64,000 nt of DNA from positions 47,744-111,743 of the forward strand of contig JAIELG010000009.1 of the NCBI GenBank assembly GCA_019753155.1, in the 5' to 3' direction. Source of the DNA: Burkholderiales bacterium. Its GTDB lineage: Bacteria > Pseudomonadota > Gammaproteobacteria > Burkholderiales > JABEVD01. The notes beneath the pieces were generated by a model. It was given only the letters and a program-made list of their open reading frames with translations. It was not told the origin of the DNA and did not search any database. A program made the translations under genes and the position numbers. Positions 1-29,668 of this stretch are shown in pieces. Each line of letters opens with the position of its first letter. Within the stretch, counting starts at the first letter, position 1.

Positions 1-281
1 TCGGCGGCAATTTGGACGACATCCTCTGCGAGCAGTTCGAGCGCACCGTGGGGCATGACAACTGCGTACATTTCGACGGAATGGCCCTGCAAATCCCATC
101 AGATCGCCATCGCTGCCATTATGTGAAAGCCAAAGTTCGGGTGACCCGTTACACGAACGGCAGTCTGGCCATATTTCACGGCCCCAGAAAACTCGCTCTC
201 TATGACGATAAGGGCAAGGAAATGAAACAGGATATACAAGCCGTCGCGCCGGTCCGCCGCGCGGCAAGCGCCGGGAATTGA
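1..281 (+). CDS. DDE (rve-type) transposase, C-terminal part; the 5' end is outside the window
   Basis: The reading frame is open to the window edge. The tail ...RTVGHDNCVHFDGMALQIP...KAKVRVTRYTNGSLAIFHG.RKLA.YD looks like the C-terminal beta-rich region of integrase-core transposases (ISNCY/IS481-like). The family call is tentative. Confidence 0.55.
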   Translation, partial: GGNLDDILCEQFERTVGHDNCVHFDGMALQIPSDRHRCHYVKAKVRVTRYTNGSLAIFHGPRKLALYDDKGKEMKQDIQAVAPVRRAASAGN

Positions 282-306
282 AACCACAATTCCAGACGCT
301 TAAAAG

Positions 307-350
307 CGGACAATTCATTTGCTACAAAACCGGACAGTTCTATTTGTTGC
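307..350 (+). repeat. Two roughly 20-nt direct sub-repeats just after the transposase stop; putative IS subterminal binding sites or right end
   Basis: CGGACAATTCATTTGCTAC (307-325) and CGGACAGTTCTATTTGTTGC (331-350) are about 80 percent identical with one indel. Confidence 0.35.
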
Positions 351-355
351 TAACA

Positions 356-416
356 CCCAGCTTCTTCGCCAAATCCTCGGCCCTCAAGTGTGTGTATCGT
401 TTCAGCATCTGCAAGG
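356..416 (-). pseudogene. Remnant of a tyrosine-integrase 3' end (last ~20 codons only)
   Basis: About 60 nt are roughly 85 percent identical to the 3' end of the intact integrase gene at 1751-1812. The remnant encodes ...LQMLKRYTHLRAEDLAKKLG. Similarity stops abruptly at 416. Confidence 0.6.
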
Positions 417-459
417 AAGCACGCGCCGCTGAACTCGACGCTCGCCCAATAAAAATCAT

Positions 460-934
460 GATTGACCCTCGACTTGCTACTTATACTTCGGCGCTTGAAC
501 TTCATCTCGTCGAGGTGGGGGACAAAGCCGCGACCGCAGAAATACCCGGAGAGCGGTTTGGAAAGGCCAGTAATGCGCTCTATAGCCTCGGGGTAGGTGC
601 TGAGCGCGAGCGGCTCATTTGCCTCGATCTGCGGCCTGGACTGAAGAAGGACGACTGCGATCTGGTACTGATTCTGGATAACCAGGCACTCGAAGCGAGG
701 GAAAGGACCGGTATCGACCTGTATACCACCAGCCAGGATCGCGTTGCGCGCGATGCCGAGCGCAAGCGACAGGTCGAGATGTTACGTAATAATGAAGCTC
801 CGCCCGGCCAGGCAATCGAGGCCGAACAGGAGCAGGCCGTAGCGGTCAAGGCTACACCAGAAGTGTCAAAAGAAGGGGTGTATTGGGAGGAATCGGAACC
901 CGAGATCGACGATGAAATGGATTTCGGGCTATAG
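460..934 (+). CDS. Hypothetical protein with an acidic C-terminus; start uncertain
   Basis: The ORF 278-934 overlaps the integrase remnant at its 5' end, so the only in-frame ATG (460) is used. There is no convincing RBS and no recognisable family. Confidence 0.35.
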
Positions 935-941
935 ACGGCGA

Positions 942-960
942 GCGAACCGCCTGGGTTCGC
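942..960. terminator. Stem-loop between convergent genes
   Basis: GCGAACC-gcctg-GGTTCGC, a 7-bp perfect stem between the 934 and 987 gene ends. Confidence 0.4.
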
Positions 961-986
961 CTTCTGCAACCGCTATCGCCGCGTCC

Positions 987-1340
987 TCATTGTCGGGGAC
1001 TTCCCAGCTCTCGATCGCCTATCATGGTCCATGCGTGCGAATGTTCAATAGGTTCGATTGCCAGGCGCATCCCCATGGCGCGTAAAATTGCGGACAGTGT
1101 GTTCAGCTCCGGGTTGCCTTTTTCGGACAGAGTGCGATACAGGGTATGTGCATTGACATCGGCTTGGCGTGCCACTTCGGCAACACCGCCGAATGTTTTG
1201 CTCAAGCTTCGCAACGCAATCATCAAGTCGGCTTCGTCGCCATCATGAAGCACAGAGTTCAGATATTCGGCGGCGAGATTTGGATCACGCCGAAACATTT
1301 CTGTCGTTGCTTCTTCATGAGTTCGATCAGTTCTTGCCAT
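987..1340 (-). CDS. Addiction-module antidote protein (HigA-like HTH antitoxin)
   Basis: FRRDPNLAAEYLN..L.DGD...ALRSL...GGVAEVARQADVNAHTLYRTLSEKGNPELNTLSAILRAMGMRL matches the 'probable addiction module antidote' family. A GGAG lies 8 nt upstream of the ATG. Confidence 0.8.
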   Translation of the reverse strand: MARTDRTHEEATTEMFRRDPNLAAEYLNSVLHDGDEADLMIALRSLSKTFGGVAEVARQADVNAHTLYRTLSEKGNPELNTLSAILRAMGMRLAIEPIEHSHAWTMIGDRELGSPRQ

Positions 1341-1348
1341 TTCGTGTT

Positions 1349-1408
1349 CTCCAATCTTTCAGTAGCCCGGTCCCGAAGAGAATCAAGCCAATCCTGATGA
1401 ACCGCATG
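1349..1408 (-). pseudogene. Possible N-terminal remnant of the cognate killer toxin
   Basis: The off-frame translation HAVHQDWLDSLRDRATERLE resembles the F..WL..L.D..A motif at the N-terminus of the toxins normally encoded just upstream of this antitoxin family. It has no start codon and spans about 20 codons. Confidence 0.3.
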
Positions 1409-1418
1409 GGGACGTTCC

Positions 1419-1658
1419 TCAACCGAGTTCCAGGCGCCGCTCGATGCGCTCGATGCGTTCGTTCAGCCGGTCCATGCGGACACCCATGGACGCAGCGATT
1501 TCCTCTGAATGTCCGAAGTCGCGCCGCAGACTGGCGACTGACACTTCCAGGTTTCCAATACGGGTGATGACCTCTTCGAGCTTGCGCTCGATGCGGTCTT
1601 GTCCCGCCTGAAAGCGCTTGAGGTGTTCGAGGATAATGTTCTCGGTGTTCTCAGTCAT
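1419..1658 (-). CDS. Small coiled-coil hypothetical protein (79 aa)
   Basis: A clean ORF with AGGTGA 9 nt upstream of the ATG. The sequence has heptad-like, E/R/L-rich character and no family is recognised. Confidence 0.5.
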   Translation of the reverse strand: MTENTENIILEHLKRFQAGQDRIERKLEEVITRIGNLEVSVASLRRDFGHSEEIAASMGVRMDRLNERIERIERRLELG

Positions 1659-1750
1659 TTGGTCCGGTCACCTGTTATGGGTTAATCGGTAATGGATAAT
1701 CTGGTACATTTTTATTTTAGCTTATAAGCGAATATATGCAAGAGCGATTT

Positions 1751-2806
1751 TTATCCCAGCTTCTTCGCCAGATCCCTTGCCTTCAAGTGCGTATACCGCT
1801 TCAGCATCTGCAAGGTTTTGTGACCAGTGATCGAGGCCACTTCCATCATGTCAAATTTGCCTGACTCGAACAGGCGGGAAGCGGCTTCGTGACGAAGATC
1901 ATGGAAGCGGACGCCTGAAAGAAACCCATCTAAAGCAGCCCGCTCTTCTTTCTCGCAATCTGCTTTATAGTTCCTTTGTGCACGCTCGATCGCATGCCCC
2001 CAGGATTGCACAACAGCACTTTGAGTGGTCGGAAACACTCTCCCGTTTATGGATCGGGGCAAACCCTGCAAAAGCGCTATGGCACGAGAGGAAAGCGGTA
2101 CGCCACGGTTTTCATCATTTTTTGCATCACGGACAAGTAAAATCTTGTCCTGCAAATCAACGTCCCTCCATTCCAGTTTTAGCAGCTCACCTTGCCGCAT
2201 TGCGGTTTCCAGGGCAATTACAGCTATAGGAAGGATCCACGCGTTGGATAAATCCCCCTTGCCTGAATCAGCCAAGGCAGCCATCAAGTACATTTCCTCA
2301 TCACCTTCCAGCCGACGATCGCGCGCATTATCAACCTTGGGTTTACGGACCATCATGACAGGGTTCATAACGCCCATCCCCCATTCTCTTGTTGCCGTGG
2401 TGTATAAATGGGAGAGTATGGCCAGATATTTCTGAACAGTCGATGCAGCGGCTCCTGCTGAAAGCATCTCATCCCGGTATGCCGCTATATCCGCAGGGCG
2501 GATGCTGGCAATGAATCGGGAGGATAAGGGATGCCGCATCAACTTGCCTATTTTGAGCGTTTCCTCCTTTGCTCCCTTTTTCGTGACAGTCACTTCGTTG
2601 AGGTACCGCTCAAGAGCCTCCTTGATGGTCGTTGACTCCGCTTCCGATCTGTCGATAAAAACGCCGCGATCCATTTCATGCTCAACCATCCTTGCCCAGG
2701 CTTCTGCATCCACCCTGGTTTCGAGCGTCTTGGTTTGATACGGGTAGCCCTTGCGCCTGATTTCGACTTGCCACTGATAATCGCCGCGCTTCCTGAAAGT
2801 CGCCAT
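1751..2806 (-). CDS. int: Tyrosine-type site-specific integrase (phage integrase family)
   Basis: The C-terminal catalytic motifs HDLRHEAASRL and ITGHKTLQMLKRYTH are present. The gene is adjacent to a tRNA fragment. Confidence 0.9.
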   Translation of the reverse strand: MATFRKRGDYQWQVEIRRKGYPYQTKTLETRVDAEAWARMVEHEMDRGVFIDRSEAESTTIKEALERYLNEVTVTKKGAKEETLKIGKLMRHPLSSRFIASIRPADIAAYRDEMLSAGAAASTVQKYLAILSHLYTTATREWGMGVMNPVMMVRKPKVDNARDRRLEGDEEMYLMAALADSGKGDLSNAWILPIAVIALETAMRQGELLKLEWRDVDLQDKILLVRDAKNDENRGVPLSSRAIALLQGLPRSINGRVFPTTQSAVVQSWGHAIERAQRNYKADCEKEERAALDGFLSGVRFHDLRHEAASRLFESGKFDMMEVASITGHKTLQMLKRYTHLKARDLAKKLG

Positions 2807-2817
2807 TATCGCCCCTC

Positions 2818-2838
2818 ATTACGACAAATTTACGACAA
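2818..2838 (+). repeat. Tandem direct repeat TTACGACAAA x2 between the int start and the att site; candidate arm-type or autoregulatory site
   Basis: TTACGACAAA at 2818-2827 and again at 2829-2838, beginning 12 nt from the integrase start codon. Confidence 0.4.
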
Positions 2839-2906
2839 AAACCCATAATTGAAATGTATATCACGCTGTAAGCCGCGTCAATACTAGCTTTATAGAAATC
2901 GAAGAG

Positions 2907-2956
2907 AGGGACTCATAATCCCTTGGTCCACGGTTCAAGTCCGTGCGGACCCACCA
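2907..2956 (+). tRNA. tRNA-Met (anticodon CAT), 3' fragment only (anticodon arm to CCA); att repeat, not a functional gene
   Basis: The fragment reads: anticodon stem AGGGA/TCCCT with loop CTCATAA, variable loop TGGTC, T-arm CACGG-TTCAAGT-CCGTG, acceptor 3' strand CGGACCC, discriminator A, then CCA. No complementary GGGTCCG 5' strand or D-arm lies upstream. Confidence 0.75.
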
Positions 2957-2962
2957 ACAAAA

Positions 2963-2994
2963 CCCCTGTAAATCATAAGTTTGCAGGGGTTTTT
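2963..2994 (+). terminator. Intrinsic terminator following the tRNA fragment
   Basis: CCCCTGTAAA...TTTGCAGGGG forms a stem with one mismatch and is followed by TTTTT. Confidence 0.6.
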
Positions 2995-3069
2995 CATTTC
3001 TACTGACCTACCCCTGGCTAAACTTGCAGACGAGGCCCTCGCCGAGCATGTGGCCGGGAAGACTCAGTC

Positions 3070-3348
3070 ATTCTGAGTATTTTTCGGTCGAAAACTACGG
3101 CTCAATTCCGCCAGATTTTAGCAGATGCTCCGCCTGACATACATGTGAGGGCGCGGACTGTGTACCGTCTTTGGGCCGAGAACCCATCTCATCCATCGCT
3201 TCGCTTCAAGAAGGTACATAATCAGTTGCCGATTTACTCAGTCCGCATTGACTTGGACTGGCGAGCAGTTGGAACATTGCATGACGGAACGGTGGTATGA
3301 TTCTGGATCGGCCCACATAGCGAATATGAAAAACTTCTTAGACATTGA
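3070..3348 (+). pseudogene. ParE-like (RelE/ParE superfamily) toxin pseudogene with an in-frame TGA at a conserved Trp position
   Basis: The translation is ...RTVYRLWAENPSHPSLRFKKVHNQLPIYSVRIDLDWRAVGTLHDGTVV*FWIGPHSEYEKLL. The stop at 3298-3300 sits where family members have W (WFWIG). There is no clear start codon. Confidence 0.6.
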
Positions 3349-3509
3349 TCCTCAGCTGCCTAACCCGGCAGTCGAGTCGGACGCGGCGAAGAAGCCGCCG
3401 CGCCGCTCACCCGGAAAAACCGGGCCGAGTTACCGTTGCCGGGAAACCGAGCGATGATCTTGCCCCCGGCACATTGAACAGCATCCTGAAACAAGCACGC
3501 CTCAAATAG
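3345..3509 (+). pseudogene. hicA: HicA-family toxin, N-terminally truncated or degenerate
   Basis: The C-terminal 33 aa HPEKPGRVTVAGKPSDDLAPGTLNSILKQARLK are a strong HicA match. The upstream 20 codons are R/S-rich, lack the GSH motif and the N-terminal helix, and only a TTG start is available. Confidence 0.5.
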
Positions 3510-3516
3510 GAGCCAT

Positions 3517-3729
3517 ATGCGATACGCCATTGTCATCGAAAATGCCGGAAACAACTTCTCTGCTTATGCGCCTGACCTCCCTGGTTGTGTAGCTACCGGA
3601 GCAACCCTGGAAGAAGCCGAGCGCGAAATTCGTGAAGCCATCGCATTCCATATCGTTGGTCTTCGGGAAGATGGCCTGCCTGTTCCATTACCTACAAGCC
3701 AGGTCGAGTACATTGAAGTCGCGGCATAA
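3517..3729 (+). CDS. hicB: HicB-family antitoxin (UPF0150)
   Basis: MRYAIVIENAGNNFSAYAPDLPGCVATGATLEEAEREIREAIAFH... is the typical HicB N-terminal domain. AGGAG lies upstream of the ATG. Confidence 0.85.
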   Translation: MRYAIVIENAGNNFSAYAPDLPGCVATGATLEEAEREIREAIAFHIVGLREDGLPVPLPTSQVEYIEVAA

Positions 3730-3823
3730 TCGGGTAAGGACCGGCTGAGAGCCGCATCCCCACGCCATTCGGGGTCTAGAAAGGTGGCATATGCAATAAC
3801 GGGGGCAGGAAATCACGCGCCGC

Positions 3824-3949
3824 ATGCCGGACCGGAACGCTGCGATTGTTGCCGCCCATGCAACGGGCGGGTATTCTTATCCAGAAATCGCCGACCATTT
3901 CGGCATCCACCTCACTACGGTGGGCAGGATCGTGAGAAAAGAGAAATGA
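3824..3949 (+). pseudogene. Isolated helix-turn-helix fragment (42 codons), probably the C-terminal remnant of a transposase or regulator
   Basis: ...NAAIVAAHATGGYSYPEIADHFGIHLTTVGRIVRKEK is an HTH of the kind found at the C-terminus of some Y1/REP-associated transposases. It is flanked by a 10-bp inverted repeat (3774-3783 and 3957-3966). Confidence 0.3.
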
Positions 3950-4001
3950 CTTGCTACTTTCTAGACCTGACCCAGAATGCGGTGACCCCGAAGGCCCGAC
4001 T

Positions 4002-4346
4002 TTAGAACGCCACCAAAACAGGCTCGTCGGCGATTTCGTACTGGCAGGCAAGACGCCACCTGGGCGGGATGTCCTTCAATACATGCGATTCGCTTTCCTC
4101 GCGGCTCATCTTTCCGGCGCGAAGCAATTCACGCCGCTCGATATCGTTCAGGCTGACCACCCTGGCGCTCCTGCGCATGGGCGCAACTTTTACGGCACAG
4201 GAACCGCACTTCCCCTCCCCGCAAATGCAGGTCTTGGGGAGATTGTAGCGCTCCATCAGCTTGAGCAGGGTGACATGGCTATTCTCCGGCACCTCGACTA
4301 CCAGCCGCTCCCGCATGGGAGGCGTAAGAAAAGTGACCGTAACCAT
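4002..4346 (-). CDS. [2Fe-2S] ferredoxin, Shethna protein II (FeSII)-like, copy 2
   Basis: The Cys cluster is C.CGEGKCGSC...RLACQ and the C-terminus is DIPPRWRLACQYEIADEPVLVAF. GGGGTGA lies 5 nt before the ATG. It is the last gene of the nifHDK string. Confidence 0.8.
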   Translation of the reverse strand: MVTVTFLTPPMRERLVVEVPENSHVTLLKLMERYNLPKTCICGEGKCGSCAVKVAPMRRSARVVSLNDIERRELLRAGKMSREESESHVLKDIPPRWRLACQYEIADEPVLVAF

Positions 4347-4370
4347 GATTCACCCCATCGACTTAAGTGA

Positions 4371-4718
4371 TCAGAACTTCACCAGGATGTCCTCGTTGCG
4401 CACGATATACTGGCAAGCCAGGCGCCACGGCGGTGGAATATCCTTGAGTTCGGCATCTTCGATCTGCTGCTTGCTGATTTTTCCGGCAAGCTTCAAGACC
4501 GTCTTTTCCTTTTCGGTCAGGTGCATGCCCATGGGCTGCCTGTCCGACAGGACACTGACTTCCAGCGCGCAGGAACCGCATTCACCGTTTTCGCACTCGA
4601 AATCGACCGGAATCTTGTTCGCCCTGGCGGTCGCCAGCAGGGTGCTGCAGTCTCCTGCGGTGGCGTAAACCGTGACATCCTTTTTCATCTTGGGTGAACT
4701 GAATGTTACATTAGCCAT
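4371..4718 (-). CDS. [2Fe-2S] ferredoxin, Shethna protein II (FeSII)-like, copy 1
   Basis: MANVTFSSPKM...FECENGECGSCALEV...LTEKEKTVLK..GK...DIPPPWRLACQYIVRNEDILVKF is colinear, from my recollection, with Azotobacter FeSII. I chose the internal ATG at 4718, which has an AAGGAA RBS, over the longer ORF. Confidence 0.85.
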   Translation of the reverse strand: MANVTFSSPKMKKDVTVYATAGDCSTLLATARANKIPVDFECENGECGSCALEVSVLSDRQPMGMHLTEKEKTVLKLAGKISKQQIEDAELKDIPPPWRLACQYIVRNEDILVKF

Positions 4719-4768: not shown

Positions 4769-6307
4769 TCAACGGATGATGTCGAAGCTGTAATCGCTCT
4801 TCGCCGGGATGTTGGTGGTGTTGTCCATCACGTCAAAAATCTTGTCGAGGATCGTGATCAGAACGTTCATTCCACCCTGATAGCCCCATACCGGACGACG
4901 GTGGTGATGGTGGCGATCGAAAACAGGGAAACCGATGCGGATGAGCGGCGTTCCGGTATCACGATCGAGGTACTTCCCGTAGGTGTTGCCGATCAGGAAA
5001 TCGACCGGTTCGGTGAAGAGCAGGGAACGCATGTGCCAGAGATCCTTCCCTGCATAGGCATGGCAACCCTTGCCGAAAGGCGAGCTTTCGAACAGTTCGT
5101 TCATTTTTGCTTCCCATTCCTTGCCGCCGTTGGTGGAAAGAACATGGACAGGCTCCGCGCCGAGTTCCATGAGAAATGCGGCAAGTCCGAGCGTGAGATC
5201 CGGGTCGCCGTAGATCGCAAATTTCTTGCCGTGGATATGTGCGCTCGAATCCGCAATCGCATCCACCAGACGTCCGCGCTCCTTGGTCAACTCCGTGGGA
5301 ATAGTCTTGCCCGTGATCCTGGAAACTTCCATCAGGAACTTGTCCGTGGCGGCGACGCCCACGGGATGATTGAAGGCGGCGACTTCCTGCCCTTTTTCCG
5401 CGGCATAGGCGAGCGTCTTCTCGCTGCAGAACTGCTGCATCGCAATCGTGGCCTTGGCGTTCAGCGCTGCCGCCGTATCTTCGAGCGTGGTGCCGCCGTC
5501 GTACATGCGGAACTCGCCGTCAGCCGGGGTATCGAACACTTCGCTGTTGTCGGCGAGTATCGTATGTTCGACGCCCATGAGGTCGAACATGCGCTTCACT
5601 TCGCGCAGGTTGCCCACGGTATAGCCGTCGAAACCGCCGATGAAGTTGATCTTGTCGTTGGGGGTGCGTTCCTTGCCTTCCCAGAAGTTGGAAAGGATGC
5701 CCCTGAGCGCATTGTCGTAACCCGTGATATGGCTGCCGACGAATGCAGGCGTATGGGCGTAGGGGACGGGATAGTCCTCGGGAACGCTGCCCTTGTTTTT
5801 CGCGTTGGTGATGAAGCCGTTCAGGTCGTCCCCGATCACTTCGGCCATGCAGGTCGTGGAAACGGCAATCATCTTCGGCTTGTACATGGCATAGGTGTTG
5901 GCCAACCCGTCGATCATGTTGTTGAGTCCGCCGAACACCGCAGCATCTTCCGTCATCGAGGAGGACACGCAGGAAGAAGGTTCCTTGAAATGACGGGAAA
6001 GATGGCTGCGATAATAGGCCACGCAGCCTTGCGAACCATGCACGAAAGGCATCGTCTTTTCGAAGCCGACTGCGACGAAAACAGCGCCCAAAGGCTGGCA
6101 TGCCTTGGCCGGGTTGACGGTCAGCGCTTCGCGGCTGAAATTCTTCTCCCGGTATTCCCAGGATTTCGTCCATTCGCGGGTCTCTTCGACCTTGTCCATG
6201 GGATGGGGAAATTCGAAATTCTTTTTCTTGCTTTCGAACATCTCGATGTATTCCGGCTCGCGGAACAGGTTGAAATGGTCGAGTACGTTGTTCGAACTCT
6301 GAGTCAT
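4769..6307 (-). CDS. nifK: Nitrogenase MoFe protein beta chain
   Basis: 512 aa. It has the N-terminal ...[38 protein letters not shown] motif and follows nifD. Confidence 0.97.
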
Positions 6308-7829: not shown

Positions 7830-7916
7830 GAGATCCGGGAGATCTCTGTAAATGGCGCGGCCATGCAGCGCCATTTGCAGAGCCCTCCCAGGAACGCCCG
7901 CGGCATGCCGCGGGCG
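7830..7916 (-). promoter_or_regulatory. Three consecutive stem-loops in the nifH-nifD intergenic region
   Basis: The stems are GAGATC-N5-GATCTC (7830-7846), AAATGGCGC-N9-GCGCCATTT (7850-7876) and CGCCCGCGG-catg-CCGCGGGCG (7895-7916). Confidence 0.55.
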
Positions 7917-9143: not shown

Positions 9144-9159
9144 TGGAACGGATTTTGCA
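9144..9159 (+). promoter_or_regulatory. Sigma-54 (-24/-12) promoter of the divergent four-gene operon
   Basis: TGGAAC-GGATT-TTGCA lies 37 nt upstream of the ATG at 9196. Confidence 0.65.
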
Positions 9160-9195: not shown

Positions 9196-9591
9196 ATGCA
9201 AATCGGTGTAGACAGTGTCAGGGCGGTGGAAAACAAGCGCATATTCGTCGTGGACGGCGACGAGATTACCCGCGCGGTGCTTCAATTCATGCTGCACGAC
9301 GAAAACGAAACACACGATCTTCCCAGTCTCGACGCGGCACTCGCCAAGAGCGTCGACTGGAAACCCGATCTTCTGATTCTCGGAATCGGGATCGTCAGCG
9401 AGAACGGGGTGGGCATACTCGAATCGCTCAAATCCATGATTCAGGGGCTTTCCATACTGCTCGTGACGGATACGGAGCGACTCCCATTTGCCGCCGCCTG
9501 CCTGAAGTCCGGCGCAGACGATATCGTTGCGAAACCCCTCACCATCGAAATCGTGAGAGGAAAAGTGGATGCGCTCCTGCGCGGGAATTGA
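9196..9591 (+). CDS. Receiver-domain protein lacking the phospho-acceptor Asp (pseudo-receiver)
   Basis: The CheY-like layout is present: VVDGDE acidic pocket, LLVT (Thr) and AKP (Lys). The beta3 end reads PDLLILGIG where DLLILD is expected. Confidence 0.8.
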   Translation: MQIGVDSVRAVENKRIFVVDGDEITRAVLQFMLHDENETHDLPSLDAALAKSVDWKPDLLILGIGIVSENGVGILESLKSMIQGLSILLVTDTERLPFAAACLKSGADDIVAKPLTIEIVRGKVDALLRGN

Positions 9592-9596
9592 AGACG

Positions 9597-9995
9597 ATGG
9601 CCACGATTTATTTCTTTGAAAAACCCGGGTGCGCCAACAATGCCCGGCAGAAAAAGCTGCTCGCAGGTTCCGGGCATACCGTGATCGCAAAAAACATCCT
9701 GACCCACCATTGGACGGGCGAAACGCTCGCGGCTTTCTTCGGCTCCCGCCCGGTCCACTCCTGGTTCAACCGCGCTTCCCCCAGGATCAAGTCCGGGGAA
9801 ATCGTCCCGGAAAAAATTTCCTCCGAAGAAGCCCTTGCGTTCATGCTGAAAGATCCCCTGCTCATCCGTCGCCCGCTCATGCAGGTCGAAGACCGCTGCG
9901 AAGCCGGGTTCGACCCGGATCTGGTTCATGCCTGGATAGGCCTCTCCGAGAAGCTGACCGATCCTGAAACCTGCCTGCGCATCGAGGATAAATGA
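9597..9995 (+). CDS. ArsC/Spx-fold 'nitrogenase-associated protein' (possibly NifO-like)
   Basis: YFFEKPGCANNARQKKLL..SGH......L....W....L..FF...PV..WFN..SPRIKSGEI.P......AL..ML.DPLLIRRPLM matches the ArsC-like nitrogenase-associated family. An alternative TTG start is at 9588. Confidence 0.8.
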   Translation: MATIYFFEKPGCANNARQKKLLAGSGHTVIAKNILTHHWTGETLAAFFGSRPVHSWFNRASPRIKSGEIVPEKISSEEALAFMLKDPLLIRRPLMQVEDRCEAGFDPDLVHAWIGLSEKLTDPETCLRIEDK

Positions 9996-11449
9996 CCGTA
10001 TTCTCCTACCACGAACGCACCAAGCACCGGCTCGAACGCTATGCAGCAGGCCCGGAGACGCTCGACTGGTCCATGCAGCCCAATCCTTTCAGGGAATTCA
10101 TCGGTGCGAAAAAAACCGCCCTTCCCCTTTCGGCGCACAGGATTTCAGCGGGCGAGCGGCCCGCCCTGGAATCGGTCGGGGCGCTGCTTCAGCTTTCCAT
10201 GGGGCTTTCCGCCTGGAAGGAATACGGGCCGGACAGGTGGGCTTTGCGCTGCAATCCTTCCAGCGGCAACCTGCATCCGACGGAATGCTACATCCTCGCC
10301 CTGAATGTTCCGGGAATCGAAAACGGCCTTCACCACTATGCGAGCCTGGATCACAGTCTGGAACTGCGCTGCGGCGTCGAATGGACGCGGGAGACCAGGC
10401 TTTTCGTGGGACTTTCCTCCATCCACTGGCGGGAAGCCTGGAAATACGGCGAGCGCGCTTTCCGCTACTGCCAGCTCGATATCGGGCATGCATTGGGCGC
10501 GCTGCGACACGCCGCTCTGGCGCTCGGTTGGGGACTGAAAATGCTGGATACCCCGGAAACCGTCCTGGGGACTGAGCGGCTCGAAGATTTTGCCGGAGCG
10601 GAGAAGGAGGAATTCGATATTCTGCTCGAGGCCGGTTCCGGATGCGCAACCGATTTCCCCGAACTCGAAATGACGAACTGGACGGGGCAAGCCAACTGCC
10701 TCGATCCTCACCCCATGTACAAGTGGCCGGTTATCGATGAAGTGGCAGCTGCAACCCGTCATCCTCTTCCCCACGAAAACCCTCCCTCCGCCGGATATTC
10801 GGGCGCGATTTACCCCGTGGATCTGCTGCTCGGACGGCGCAGCGCGCAGCAATTCGATCCCGCCTTCACGATGAAAAAAGAGCATTTTTTTCGCATGCTG
10901 GAGCAGTTGGTCCGCCTCTGGGACATATGGGATTTCGAGTCCAGAGTGCATCCCGTTTTCTTTTTGCACCGCGTGGAAGCGATGGCGCCCGGCCTCTATG
11001 TTCTGCCGAGAAGCGATACCGCCCTATCGAAGCTCAAGGCTCACTTCAGGTCCGACTTCCTCTGGGAACAGGCTGGGCACGATCTGTACCTGCTCGCCAG
11101 GGGGGATTTCAGGGCTGTCGCCAAAACCGTCAGCTGCCGCCAGGCGATCGCCTCCGACAGTTGTTTTGCGATGGGCATGCTCGCCGAATTCGAGGAAACG
11201 ATAGGACCCGACCCCTGGCGCTATCGCCAGTTGCACTGGGAAGCCGGGCTCATGGGTCATGCGCTCTACCTGGAAGCCGAAGCCGCCGGGCTGCGCGGAA
11301 CCGGCATAGGCTGTTTTTTCGACGACGCCTTTCACGACCTTCTCGGACTCTCGGGAAAAACTTTCCAGTCCCTTTACCATTTCACCGTGGGCATGCCGCT
11401 GGTGGATTCCAGGATACTCACCCTCCCGCCCTATCCAAAAGGAGAATAA
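9992..11449 (+). CDS. SagB/ThcOx-like two-lobed nitroreductase-family dehydrogenase
   Basis: 485 aa. The N-terminal Y.ERTKH...YA.GP..LDW..QPNPFR signature is present, with a second nitroreductase-like half ending GIGCFFDD..H..LGL. Its ATG overlaps the upstream TGA. Confidence 0.75.
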   Translation: MTVFSYHERTKHRLERYAAGPETLDWSMQPNPFREFIGAKKTALPLSAHRISAGERPALESVGALLQLSMGLSAWKEYGPDRWALRCNPSSGNLHPTECYILALNVPGIENGLHHYASLDHSLELRCGVEWTRETRLFVGLSSIHWREAWKYGERAFRYCQLDIGHALGALRHAALALGWGLKMLDTPETVLGTERLEDFAGAEKEEFDILLEAGSGCATDFPELEMTNWTGQANCLDPHPMYKWPVIDEVAAATRHPLPHENPPSAGYSGAIYPVDLLLGRRSAQQFDPAFTMKKEHFFRMLEQLVRLWDIWDFESRVHPVFFLHRVEAMAPGLYVLPRSDTALSKLKAHFRSDFLWEQAGHDLYLLARGDFRAVAKTVSCRQAIASDSCFAMGMLAEFEETIGPDPWRYRQLHWEAGLMGHALYLEAEAAGLRGTGIGCFFDDAFHDLLGLSGKTFQSLYHFTVGMPLVDSRILTLPPYPKGE

Positions 11450-11451
11450 AC

Positions 11452-12198
11452 ATGACAGTTCAAAGACTATGCGCAGACGAAGTACAGGGCCTCATGCAGA
11501 AGGAAAACCTGCTGCTTCTGGATACCCGTGACAGGGCATCCTTCGACAAGGGACATATCCCGTCCGCGATGCATGCATCGACCGCGGAAATCGAAAACCT
11601 GCTCATGCGGATTCCGAAAGGCACCCCCATCCTCATTTACTGTTATCACGGCAACGCCAGCCTCGTTCACGGGCAGATGTTCGTCGATTTCGGCTTCATG
11701 GAGGTCTACAGCCTCAACGGAGGCTACGAAGGCTGGATGCTCGCCCGGAAGGAAGCCGGGAAAAGCCGCCTGCAATCCTGGCTGGACGAACAGGGCTTTT
11801 CAGGCATCGATTCGCTCATCGATGGGGGCATCACTCCGCTGATGCATGCCGCGCGCCATGGGGACGCATCGATCACGGCCGAACTCCTGATGTCGGGGGC
11901 GAATGCCGCGCCCAGGAACAGCGACGGCAATCAGGCACTCTGGTTCGCCTGCTACAGCGGCAATCTCGCCATCATGGATCTGCTGCTTTCGGCGGGCTGC
12001 GCTGTTGACAACATGAACGACAACGGCTCGACCTGCCTCATGTATGCCGCCTCCAGCGGGAAAGACAGTGTGGTGGAAAAGCTCCTAGAAGCCGGGGCGG
12101 ATATCGGCCTTGCGAATCTCGACGATTACACCGCCCTGGACATGGCATCGAGCCTGGGCGCGCTCGAGCTTCTCCGCGGCAGGAAAGTATTTTCCTGA
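11452..12198 (+). CDS. Rhodanese domain fused to ankyrin repeats
   Basis: The rhodanese part has LLLLDTRD...F..GHIP.A and the active-site loop IYCYHGNAS. At least three ANK repeats follow (TPLMHAARHGD..., NQALWFACYSGN..., STCLMYAASSGK...). AAGGAGA lies 5 nt before the ATG. The ORF-track N-terminal extension is the alternate frame of the previous gene. Confidence 0.85.
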   Translation: MTVQRLCADEVQGLMQKENLLLLDTRDRASFDKGHIPSAMHASTAEIENLLMRIPKGTPILIYCYHGNASLVHGQMFVDFGFMEVYSLNGGYEGWMLARKEAGKSRLQSWLDEQGFSGIDSLIDGGITPLMHAARHGDASITAELLMSGANAAPRNSDGNQALWFACYSGNLAIMDLLLSAGCAVDNMNDNGSTCLMYAASSGKDSVVEKLLEAGADIGLANLDDYTALDMASSLGALELLRGRKVFS

Positions 12199-29566: not shown

Positions 29567-29668
29567 GGGCGGCGAGCCCGACCCCCGGCACTTGCATAGA
29601 GTGGCTGTGGCTGCTTCCTTCCGGACCTGACCAGGTTCACCACCGTACAATGCGGGGAGACCCGCCAT
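29567..29668 (-). ncRNA. ffs: Signal recognition particle RNA (4.5S, ffs)
   Basis: The reverse complement contains the conserved domain IV core CCTGGTCAGGTCCGGAAGGAAGCAGCC. It is flanked by complementary GGCGGGTCTCCCCG... and ...CGGGGGTCGGGCTCGCC ends. An extended -10 (TGGTATAAT, 29678-29686 on the minus strand) sits just upstream. The ends are approximate. Confidence 0.8.

Follow-up and report, generated by a model that had tools for sequence, protein, structure and literature searches.

The [2Fe-2S] protein FeSII (Shethna protein II) has attracted attention as a simple addition by which an engineered nitrogenase could be shielded from oxygen, and it has been studied in Azotobacter only. FeSII carries an N-loop insertion (about residues 59 to 96), absent from other ferredoxins, that holds a lid helix, hN1 (69 to 78), and an extra helix, hN2 (84 to 91) (PMC11754109). 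In Acidithiobacillus ferrooxidans, a nifHDK-fdxD-fdx-nifEN cluster with reverse-oriented draGT has been described; its authors considered one of the ferredoxins to be an FeSII homologue that is likely co-expressed with nif and proposed the same protective role for it, an annotation for which the data were not shown (Levican et al. 2008, PMC2607301). An FeSII gene has also been found within a planctomycete nif cluster (PMC12628686). Here we describe a stretch of 64,000 nucleotides (nt) of contig JAIELG010000009.1 from a Burkholderiales bacterium (below, the window), in which two small genes, ORF1 and ORF2, directly follow nifK, as the two small ferredoxin genes do in A. ferrooxidans, and encode true members of the FeSII family. 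This pair is joined to the nifHDK operon, whereas the FeSII gene of Azotobacter is single and unlinked to nif, lying elsewhere in the genome (PMC13474568); a first reading of the window made from its sequence alone (the sequence-only reading) had correctly placed it outside nifHDK there.

The five genes lie co-oriented on the minus strand in the order nifH, nifD, nifK, ORF1, ORF2. The Fe protein gene nifH (8823 to 7924; 299 amino acids [aa]) and the MoFe alpha subunit gene nifD (7795 to 6338; 485 aa) were identified by phmmer searches of PDB with alignment (E 1e-163 and 2e-269, respectively). The MoFe beta subunit gene nifK (6307 to 4769; 512 aa) was assigned from its translation, and the Pfam families Oxidored_nitro and DUF3364 are on record for an identical protein at a related locus (L004). 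ORF1 (4718 to 4371) encodes an acidic FeSII-family protein (isoelectric point [pI] 5.8) and ORF2 (4346 to 4002) a diverged, basic paralogue (pI 8.7) with an extra cysteine, Cys40, in a C-x-C motif; both lack a C-terminal tail. We place the start of ORF1 at the ATG at 4718, which has the ribosome-binding site GAAGGAA and agrees with the homologues, all of which open with MANVTF; a mechanical list of open reading frames places it further out, at a TTG at 4772. Only 24 nt separate the ORF1 stop from the ORF2 start, and ORF2 has its own ribosome-binding site, GGGGTGA. The coordinates bear out two tandem genes in the same orientation immediately behind nifK, as the sequence-only reading had it; no promoter of their own was found. 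That reading was also right about the extra cysteine, the more basic character and the length of ORF2 (114 aa), but its 116 aa for ORF1 included the stop codon, and the protein has 115.

Evidence for membership in the FeSII family comes from both sequence and fold. All of the motifs that had been named beforehand are present in the translations: an N-terminal VTFSSPKM in ORF1 and VTFLTPPM in ORF2, the cluster ligands C42-x4-C47-x2-C50 together with C102 (C101 in ORF2), the K/E-rich central segment LTEKEKTVLKLAGK in ORF1, and a C-terminal DIPPxWRLACQ......LVxF that is common to the two. All four cysteine ligands can be aligned in both proteins, and none of them varies across 82 ORF1-type and 29 ORF2-type sequences. 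When all PDB sequences were searched, ORF1 matched A. vinelandii FeSII (5ffi) without gaps over residues 1 to 115 (E 3e-30), and ORF2 matched it over its full length with a single one-residue gap (E 3e-15; E 3e-16 for 9iey from A. beijerinckii). In the same search the next-best solved ferredoxin reached an E value of about 1e-3 with either protein, and plant-type ferredoxins reached just 0.03 or worse. The AF2 models have helices at 69 to 77 and 83 to 91 in ORF1 (pLDDT 79) and at 68 to 76 and 82 to 86 in ORF2 (pLDDT 74), which correspond to hN1 and hN2 of the A. vinelandii protein, so the N-loop with its lid is kept in both. With Foldseek, each model has only FeSII chains among its best 14 PDB fold matches, aligned at 46 to 47% identity for ORF1 and 29 to 35% for ORF2, and the best fit of the ORF1 model is to FeSII from the nitrogenase filament (9cu1_N; TM 0.89, root mean square deviation 1.8 Å). 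Alignment and structure prediction against A. vinelandii FeSII therefore gave an end-to-end match with the lid present, and the likeness suggested by the sequence-only reading holds.

The same results bear on the idea that the resemblance to FeSII is a matter of chance and that ORF1 and ORF2 encode generic ferredoxins of the plant or adrenodoxin type. Pfam does report only the general Fer2 domain (PF00111) above threshold in both proteins, NCBIfam gave no match above its cut-offs for either (fdx_plant, TIGR02008, scored 13.4 bits against a cut-off of 81), and the public records name such proteins merely '2Fe-2S iron-sulfur cluster-binding protein'. Against this stand the gap in E values between FeSII and all other solved ferredoxins, the exclusively FeSII fold matches and the lid insertion. 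Moreover, a family profile retrieved no more than 245 clusters at E≤1e-3 from 1.84 billion representative proteins, which marks FeSII as a compact family that is distinct from ordinary ferredoxins. We reject the generic assignment, as a chance resemblance of this kind is extremely improbable.

The sequence-only reading had implied that the arrangement is unusual, and this did not hold up. We surveyed one genome per species, which gave 403 stretches encoding relatives, and counts refer to the best 80 loci. An ORF1-type gene lies directly 3' of nifK at 73 of them, and a pair was reported for A. ferrooxidans as early as 2008 (PMC2607301). Within this branch of the Beta- and Gammaproteobacteria, nifK is normally followed by an ORF1-type gene, with hosts among the Methylophilaceae, Gallionellaceae, Hydrogenophaga, Rhodoferax, Acidovorax, Methylocaldum, Thiobacillus and Acidithiobacillus. 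The proteins at the surveyed loci share 70 to 91% identity with ORF1, compared to 65 to 93% for NifK, so ORF1 is at least as conserved as the nitrogenase subunit next to it. A tandem second FeSII-like gene is present at only nine of the 80 loci: in the 'Proteobacteria bacterium SKS' metagenome-assembled genomes (MAGs), which are the closest relatives of the window, in a Sulfuricellaceae MAG, a Thiohalobacterales MAG, Acidithiobacillus ferrivorans and three other MAGs. On near-relative metagenomic contigs, nifHDK and the pair are followed by convergent draG-draT and then nifENX. At the A. ferrivorans locus an ORF1-type gene (72% identical) is likewise followed by a second FeSII-like gene, but the Acidithiobacillus second copy differs strongly from ORF2 (31% identity, no C-x-C motif), and the pair of the window precedes an island of integrase and toxin-antitoxin genes, not nifEN or draGT. 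We also found alphaproteobacterial ORF1-type genes (Rhodoplanes and Rhodovulum sp. PH10; loci L061, L063, L065, L075 and L079) at 72 to 75% identity; in contrast to the copies of Beta- and Gammaproteobacteria, these have no nifHDK within the flanks covered (at most 6 kb per side; L075 is a 3.8-kb contig).

We put the probability that ORF1 and ORF2 are co-expressed with nitrogenase and provide oxygen-triggered conformational protection at roughly 0.55, and no higher because homology and linkage are the basis on which the function is inferred and because the C-terminal tail is missing. According to this proposal, nifHDK, ORF1 and ORF2 would be transcribed from a NifA/sigma-54 promoter upstream of nifH, with readthrough of the hairpin behind nifK. 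ORF1 would be the form of FeSII that is linked to nifK, widespread and highly conserved. On the model of A. vinelandii FeSII, oxygen would oxidise its cluster, upon which the lid helix would bind the Fe protein NifH, and ORF1-NifH would recruit NifDK into an inactive, oxygen-tolerant complex that is released on re-reduction. ORF2 would be an old accessory paralogue, lost by most lineages, that modulates the response, be it by forming a heterodimer with ORF1 or by acting as a second sensor whose redox behaviour differs. A basic, five-cysteine paralogue of this kind may alter the assembly of the protective complex.

Several signals on the minus strand are consistent with such joint expression. 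A predicted sigma-54 (-24/-12) promoter, TGGCACGCTCGTTGC (8986 to 8972), precedes the nifH ATG by about 150 nt and is the sole zero-mismatch match to TGGCAC-N5-TTGCW in the 64-kb window. About 85 nt further upstream there is a candidate NifA upstream activator site of the form TGT-N10-ACA (TGTTGCGTTTGTGACA; 9071 to 9056), which is a consensus match only. The hairpin that the sequence-only reading had seen behind nifK is real: a scan for terminator-like structures gave a GC-rich stem-loop, AGAGGUUGGGGGC UUU GCCCCCGCCUCU, followed by CUUUUUAU (4765 to 4736), between the nifK stop and the ribosome-binding site of ORF1. Its core (4760 to 4744) extends to AGAGG/CCUCU, the nifK-ORF1 spacer measures 50 nt, and the region folds at -27.7 kcal/mol over 91 nt (z -2.3). 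It has the look of an incomplete terminator or of a hairpin that stabilises the mRNA. The same spacer holds strong hairpins of unrelated sequence in most related loci, with a U-tract in some and none in others. In 10 related loci the spacer is just 7 to 19 nt long, too short to hold a terminator or promoter, and separate transcription is unlikely there. No sigma-70-like promoter for ORF1 or ORF2 was found on the minus strand. It is thus reasonable to infer that the two genes are co-transcribed with nifK and that the hairpin attenuates this transcription or stabilises the mRNA. The only sigma-54-like match found for the pair lies within ORF1, some 65 nt ahead of the ORF2 start, where the codons of the conserved WRLACQ motif (TGGCGCCTGGCTTGCC; 4427 to 4412, minus strand) fit a -24/-12 element with two mismatches, but this is probably a coincidence, as two-mismatch matches occur in the window at chance frequency. 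After ORF2 we found no conserved terminator; the fold there is no better than that of shuffled sequences (z -0.5), and synteny with the relatives ends at this point. A second strong stem-loop of the operon, a palindromic hairpin with a perfect, all-GC stem of 9 bp (CGCCCGCGG CATG CCGCGGGCG; 7895 to 7916, with the relevant fold on the minus strand), lies in the nifH-nifD spacer just past the nifH stop.

The cryo-EM complex of A. vinelandii provides a residue-level comparison. In that system, FeSII is a homodimer that joins two NifH2 and two NifDK and, when oxidised, polymerises into filaments. ORF1 and ORF2 resemble Azotobacter FeSII in length up to residue 115, in the four cysteines and in hN1 and hN2, but both end at the equivalent of F115 (..LVKF and ..LVAF), so that the seven-residue arm 116 to 122 is missing. 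This arm is prominent in the A. vinelandii mechanism: the terminal carboxylate of A122 lies over the NifH [4Fe:4S] cluster and E118 bridges to NifH R101, and in the resting state R92 of the second protomer holds A122 in place (Franke et al. 2025, PMC11754109). All 82 ORF1-type sequences and nearly all ORF2 relatives end at the same position, and short tails of 6 to 9 residues are present in more distant family members. Either the arm is dispensable, or proteins of the ORF1 and ORF2 types bind nitrogenase differently. We also noticed a third type in the family, which is ORF1-like and 123 aa long with a C-terminal tail (..LVKFSGEPGVTL; proteins P0139 and P0292 to P0299) and occurs in Sulfuriferula, Thiobacillus, Hydrogenophilales and Acidithiobacillus ferriphilus; tail-less and tailed forms may coexist in some lineages.

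Among the other contact positions (A. vinelandii numbering; the ORF2 clade is represented by window-type ORF2 sequences), the predicted contacts are divided between the paralogues. ORF1 appears to keep most of those to NifH: E41 is invariant in its clade, as are K70 of the latch and a lysine at R72 (the contact to NifH E69), and K76 (to NifH E112) is K or R. The ORF2 clade has V or I at position 41 (I41 in the window), mostly hydrophobic residues at 70 (I69), R or K at 72 (R71) and F, L or other hydrophobics at 76 (L75). A further NifH contact, N73, is T73 in ORF1 and R72 in ORF2. The contacts towards NifD appear to be kept by ORF2 instead: K63, which contacts NifD D204, is M, I or L in the ORF1 clade (M63 in the window) and R or K in the ORF2 clade (R in the window), and R24, on the P-cluster axis, is T or C in the former (C24) and R or H in the latter (H24 in the window; R in 16 of 23 close relatives). 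The dimer contact K53 (to D93') is mostly Q or E in the ORF1 clade and a nearly invariant K in the ORF2 clade, and the latch partner D44 is N and E, respectively. The E71-R99 bridge is kept in both clades, and D93 is conserved relative to A. vinelandii FeSII. The lid region is the most conserved part of ORF1; across the 82 ORF1-type sequences the predicted NifH-binding helix region LTEKEKTVLKLAGK, E41, K70, E71, K72, K/R76 and R99 show little variation or none. On the nitrogenase side, the window NifH conserves the equivalents of A. vinelandii E69, R101, N108 and E112, which FeSII contacts (PMC11754109), NifD conserves the segment with the equivalents of H196 and D204, and NifK has the TEDAAVFG loop with the F125 equivalent. 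All partner residues are therefore present, but they are conserved in nitrogenases generally.

Some of these observations, and two others, weigh against the proposed protection. Besides the missing arm, ORF1 appears to lack the NifD contacts K63 and R24 and has N44-K70 in place of the D44-K70 latch, while ORF2 lacks E41, K70 and K76. Many hosts of ORF1-type genes are probably microaerophiles or facultative anaerobes, in which another ferredoxin role is possible, and protective activity has been demonstrated in Azotobacter only (PMC11301756). The main rival explanation is that ORF1 and ORF2 are not clamps but working electron-transfer ferredoxins of the nif system that donate to NifH or serve FeMo-cofactor or P-cluster assembly. 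The complete set of ligands in the PF00111 domain of both proteins fits such a role, as does the location of the pair directly ahead of nifEN in several relatives, and the missing tail and altered NifD contacts weaken the analogy with a clamp. We nevertheless consider electron transfer unlikely, if still to be taken seriously, as the FeSII-specific N-loop insertion, which ordinary carriers do not have, is kept, and the best structural match is to the nitrogenase-bound state of FeSII. A nif-associated [2Fe-2S] ferredoxin is also present in Rhodobacter capsulatus (FdxD, or FdV), which we liken to ORF1 and ORF2 by description and not by sequence; its gene reportedly lies upstream of nifH and not after nifK. 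In vitro, FdD of R. capsulatus is not an electron donor to Mo-nitrogenase; diazotrophic growth does not require it, and it has been linked to the protection of Mo-nitrogenase from oxygen (PMC10936413). In addition, with a midpoint potential of -262 mV, A. vinelandii FeSII is too positive to reduce NifH (-420 mV) (PMC11754109), although these figures are those of A. vinelandii and not of ORF1 or ORF2.

The complementary contact residues and the opposite charges of the two proteins suggest a more specific form of protection, a tail-less, two-component FeSII in which an ORF1-ORF2 heterodimer would act as an asymmetric clamp that binds NifH and NifDK at opposite sides. This is speculative, and we would give it only a small chance of being correct. 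If it were true, the clamp might cap the nitrogenase complex rather than build Azotobacter-style filaments, and the pair might provide two oxygen thresholds, with Cys40 as a ligand-swap or disulfide switch.

ORF1 and ORF2 are 39% identical (E 2e-26). The extra cysteine of ORF2, C40, lies in TCICGEGKCGSC, two residues before the ligand C42; it is present in 23 of 23 close relatives and in most members of the ORF2 clade. ORF1 also has a fifth cysteine (C24), seen in just 22 of 82 relatives. It could be argued that ORF1 is the sole protector and ORF2 a redundant, slowly decaying duplicate without a role of its own, since an ORF2-type gene is missing from 71 of the 80 surveyed genomes with ORF1 and the protein has lost several of the residues with which A. 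vinelandii FeSII contacts NifH. Its evolutionary rate points in the same direction. When the window genes were compared with those of four relatives, the pairwise non-synonymous divergence (dN) was 0.12 to 0.20 for ORF2, about two to four times that of ORF1 (0.04 to 0.09) or NifK (0.03 to 0.07). The ratio of non-synonymous to synonymous divergence (dN/dS) is nevertheless only 0.05 to 0.19 for ORF2 (0.03 to 0.10 for ORF1), and the reading frame is intact in every second copy seen. ORF2 is thus under purifying selection and, judged from these rates, functional, but faster-evolving.

In a neighbour-joining tree all second copies form one group, apart from the ORF1-type sequences and Azotobacter FeSII, which sits on the ORF1 side; the bootstrap value is 98/100, from a reduced sequence set, and the tree has only 115 residues and long branches. 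A separate clade of this kind, with members in hosts as distant as Acidithiobacillus, Sulfuricellaceae, Thiohalobacterales, Ferrovum and Sulfuriferula, indicates that ORF2 is an old paralogue kept in scattered lineages and not a local duplication. Together with the dN/dS values, this rules out that ORF2 is a pseudogene or a recent tandem duplicate. The clade also has conserved features of its own: C40 in most members, a nearly invariant K53, R or K at 63, and a basic pI. For these reasons we find the redundancy of ORF2 improbable. ORF2-type proteins are a fifth-cysteine, basic paralogue that is uncharacterised in the FeSII family. They are not a great rarity but a minority form, as a profile of the second copies retrieved over 120 clusters at E<1e-33, with Sulfuricella, Sulfuriferula, Ferrovum and Hydrogenophilales among them, where a single-sequence search with ORF2 had found only 18. 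A check for subfunctionalisation was negative: positions 24, 53 and 63 of ORF1 are the same in genomes with and without ORF2. This fits a redundant ORF2 as well, and it means that ORF1 evidently works alone in most hosts and is not visibly dependent on ORF2.

Synteny with the relatives, which carry convergent draG-draT and then nifENX, stops at most 3 nt from the ORF2 stop codon. In the window, an integrase and toxin-antitoxin island (1 to 4001) abuts this stop. It contains genes for a HigA-type antidote (987 to 1340, minus strand), a tyrosine integrase (1751 to 2806, minus strand), a ParE-like toxin (3145 to 3300), HicA (3345 to 3509) and HicB (3517 to 3729). Neither draTG nor nifEN was found anywhere in the 64-kb window; the structural operon and its ferredoxin pair have thus been split from the remaining nif cluster by a mobile island or by a rearrangement.

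On the other side of the operon, four plus-strand genes diverge from nifH: those for a response-regulator receiver protein (9196 to 9591), an ArsC-like protein (9588 to 9995), a nitroreductase-family protein of 485 aa (9992 to 11449) and a rhodanese-ankyrin protein (11452 to 12198). A sigma-54-like site with one mismatch lies ahead of them at 9144 to 9159. The same four genes are also found upstream of nifH at locus L004, and the receiver and ArsC-like genes at locus L001, so the set looks nif-associated. Rfam and tRNA scans found nothing relevant to the nif, ORF1 and ORF2 locus. Rfam did give a bacterial small signal recognition particle RNA (RF00169, 78 bits) at 29568 to 29666 on the minus strand. 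Elsewhere the window carries ordinary housekeeping genes of a chromosome; those that were checked include genes for an RND efflux pump and a peroxiredoxin.

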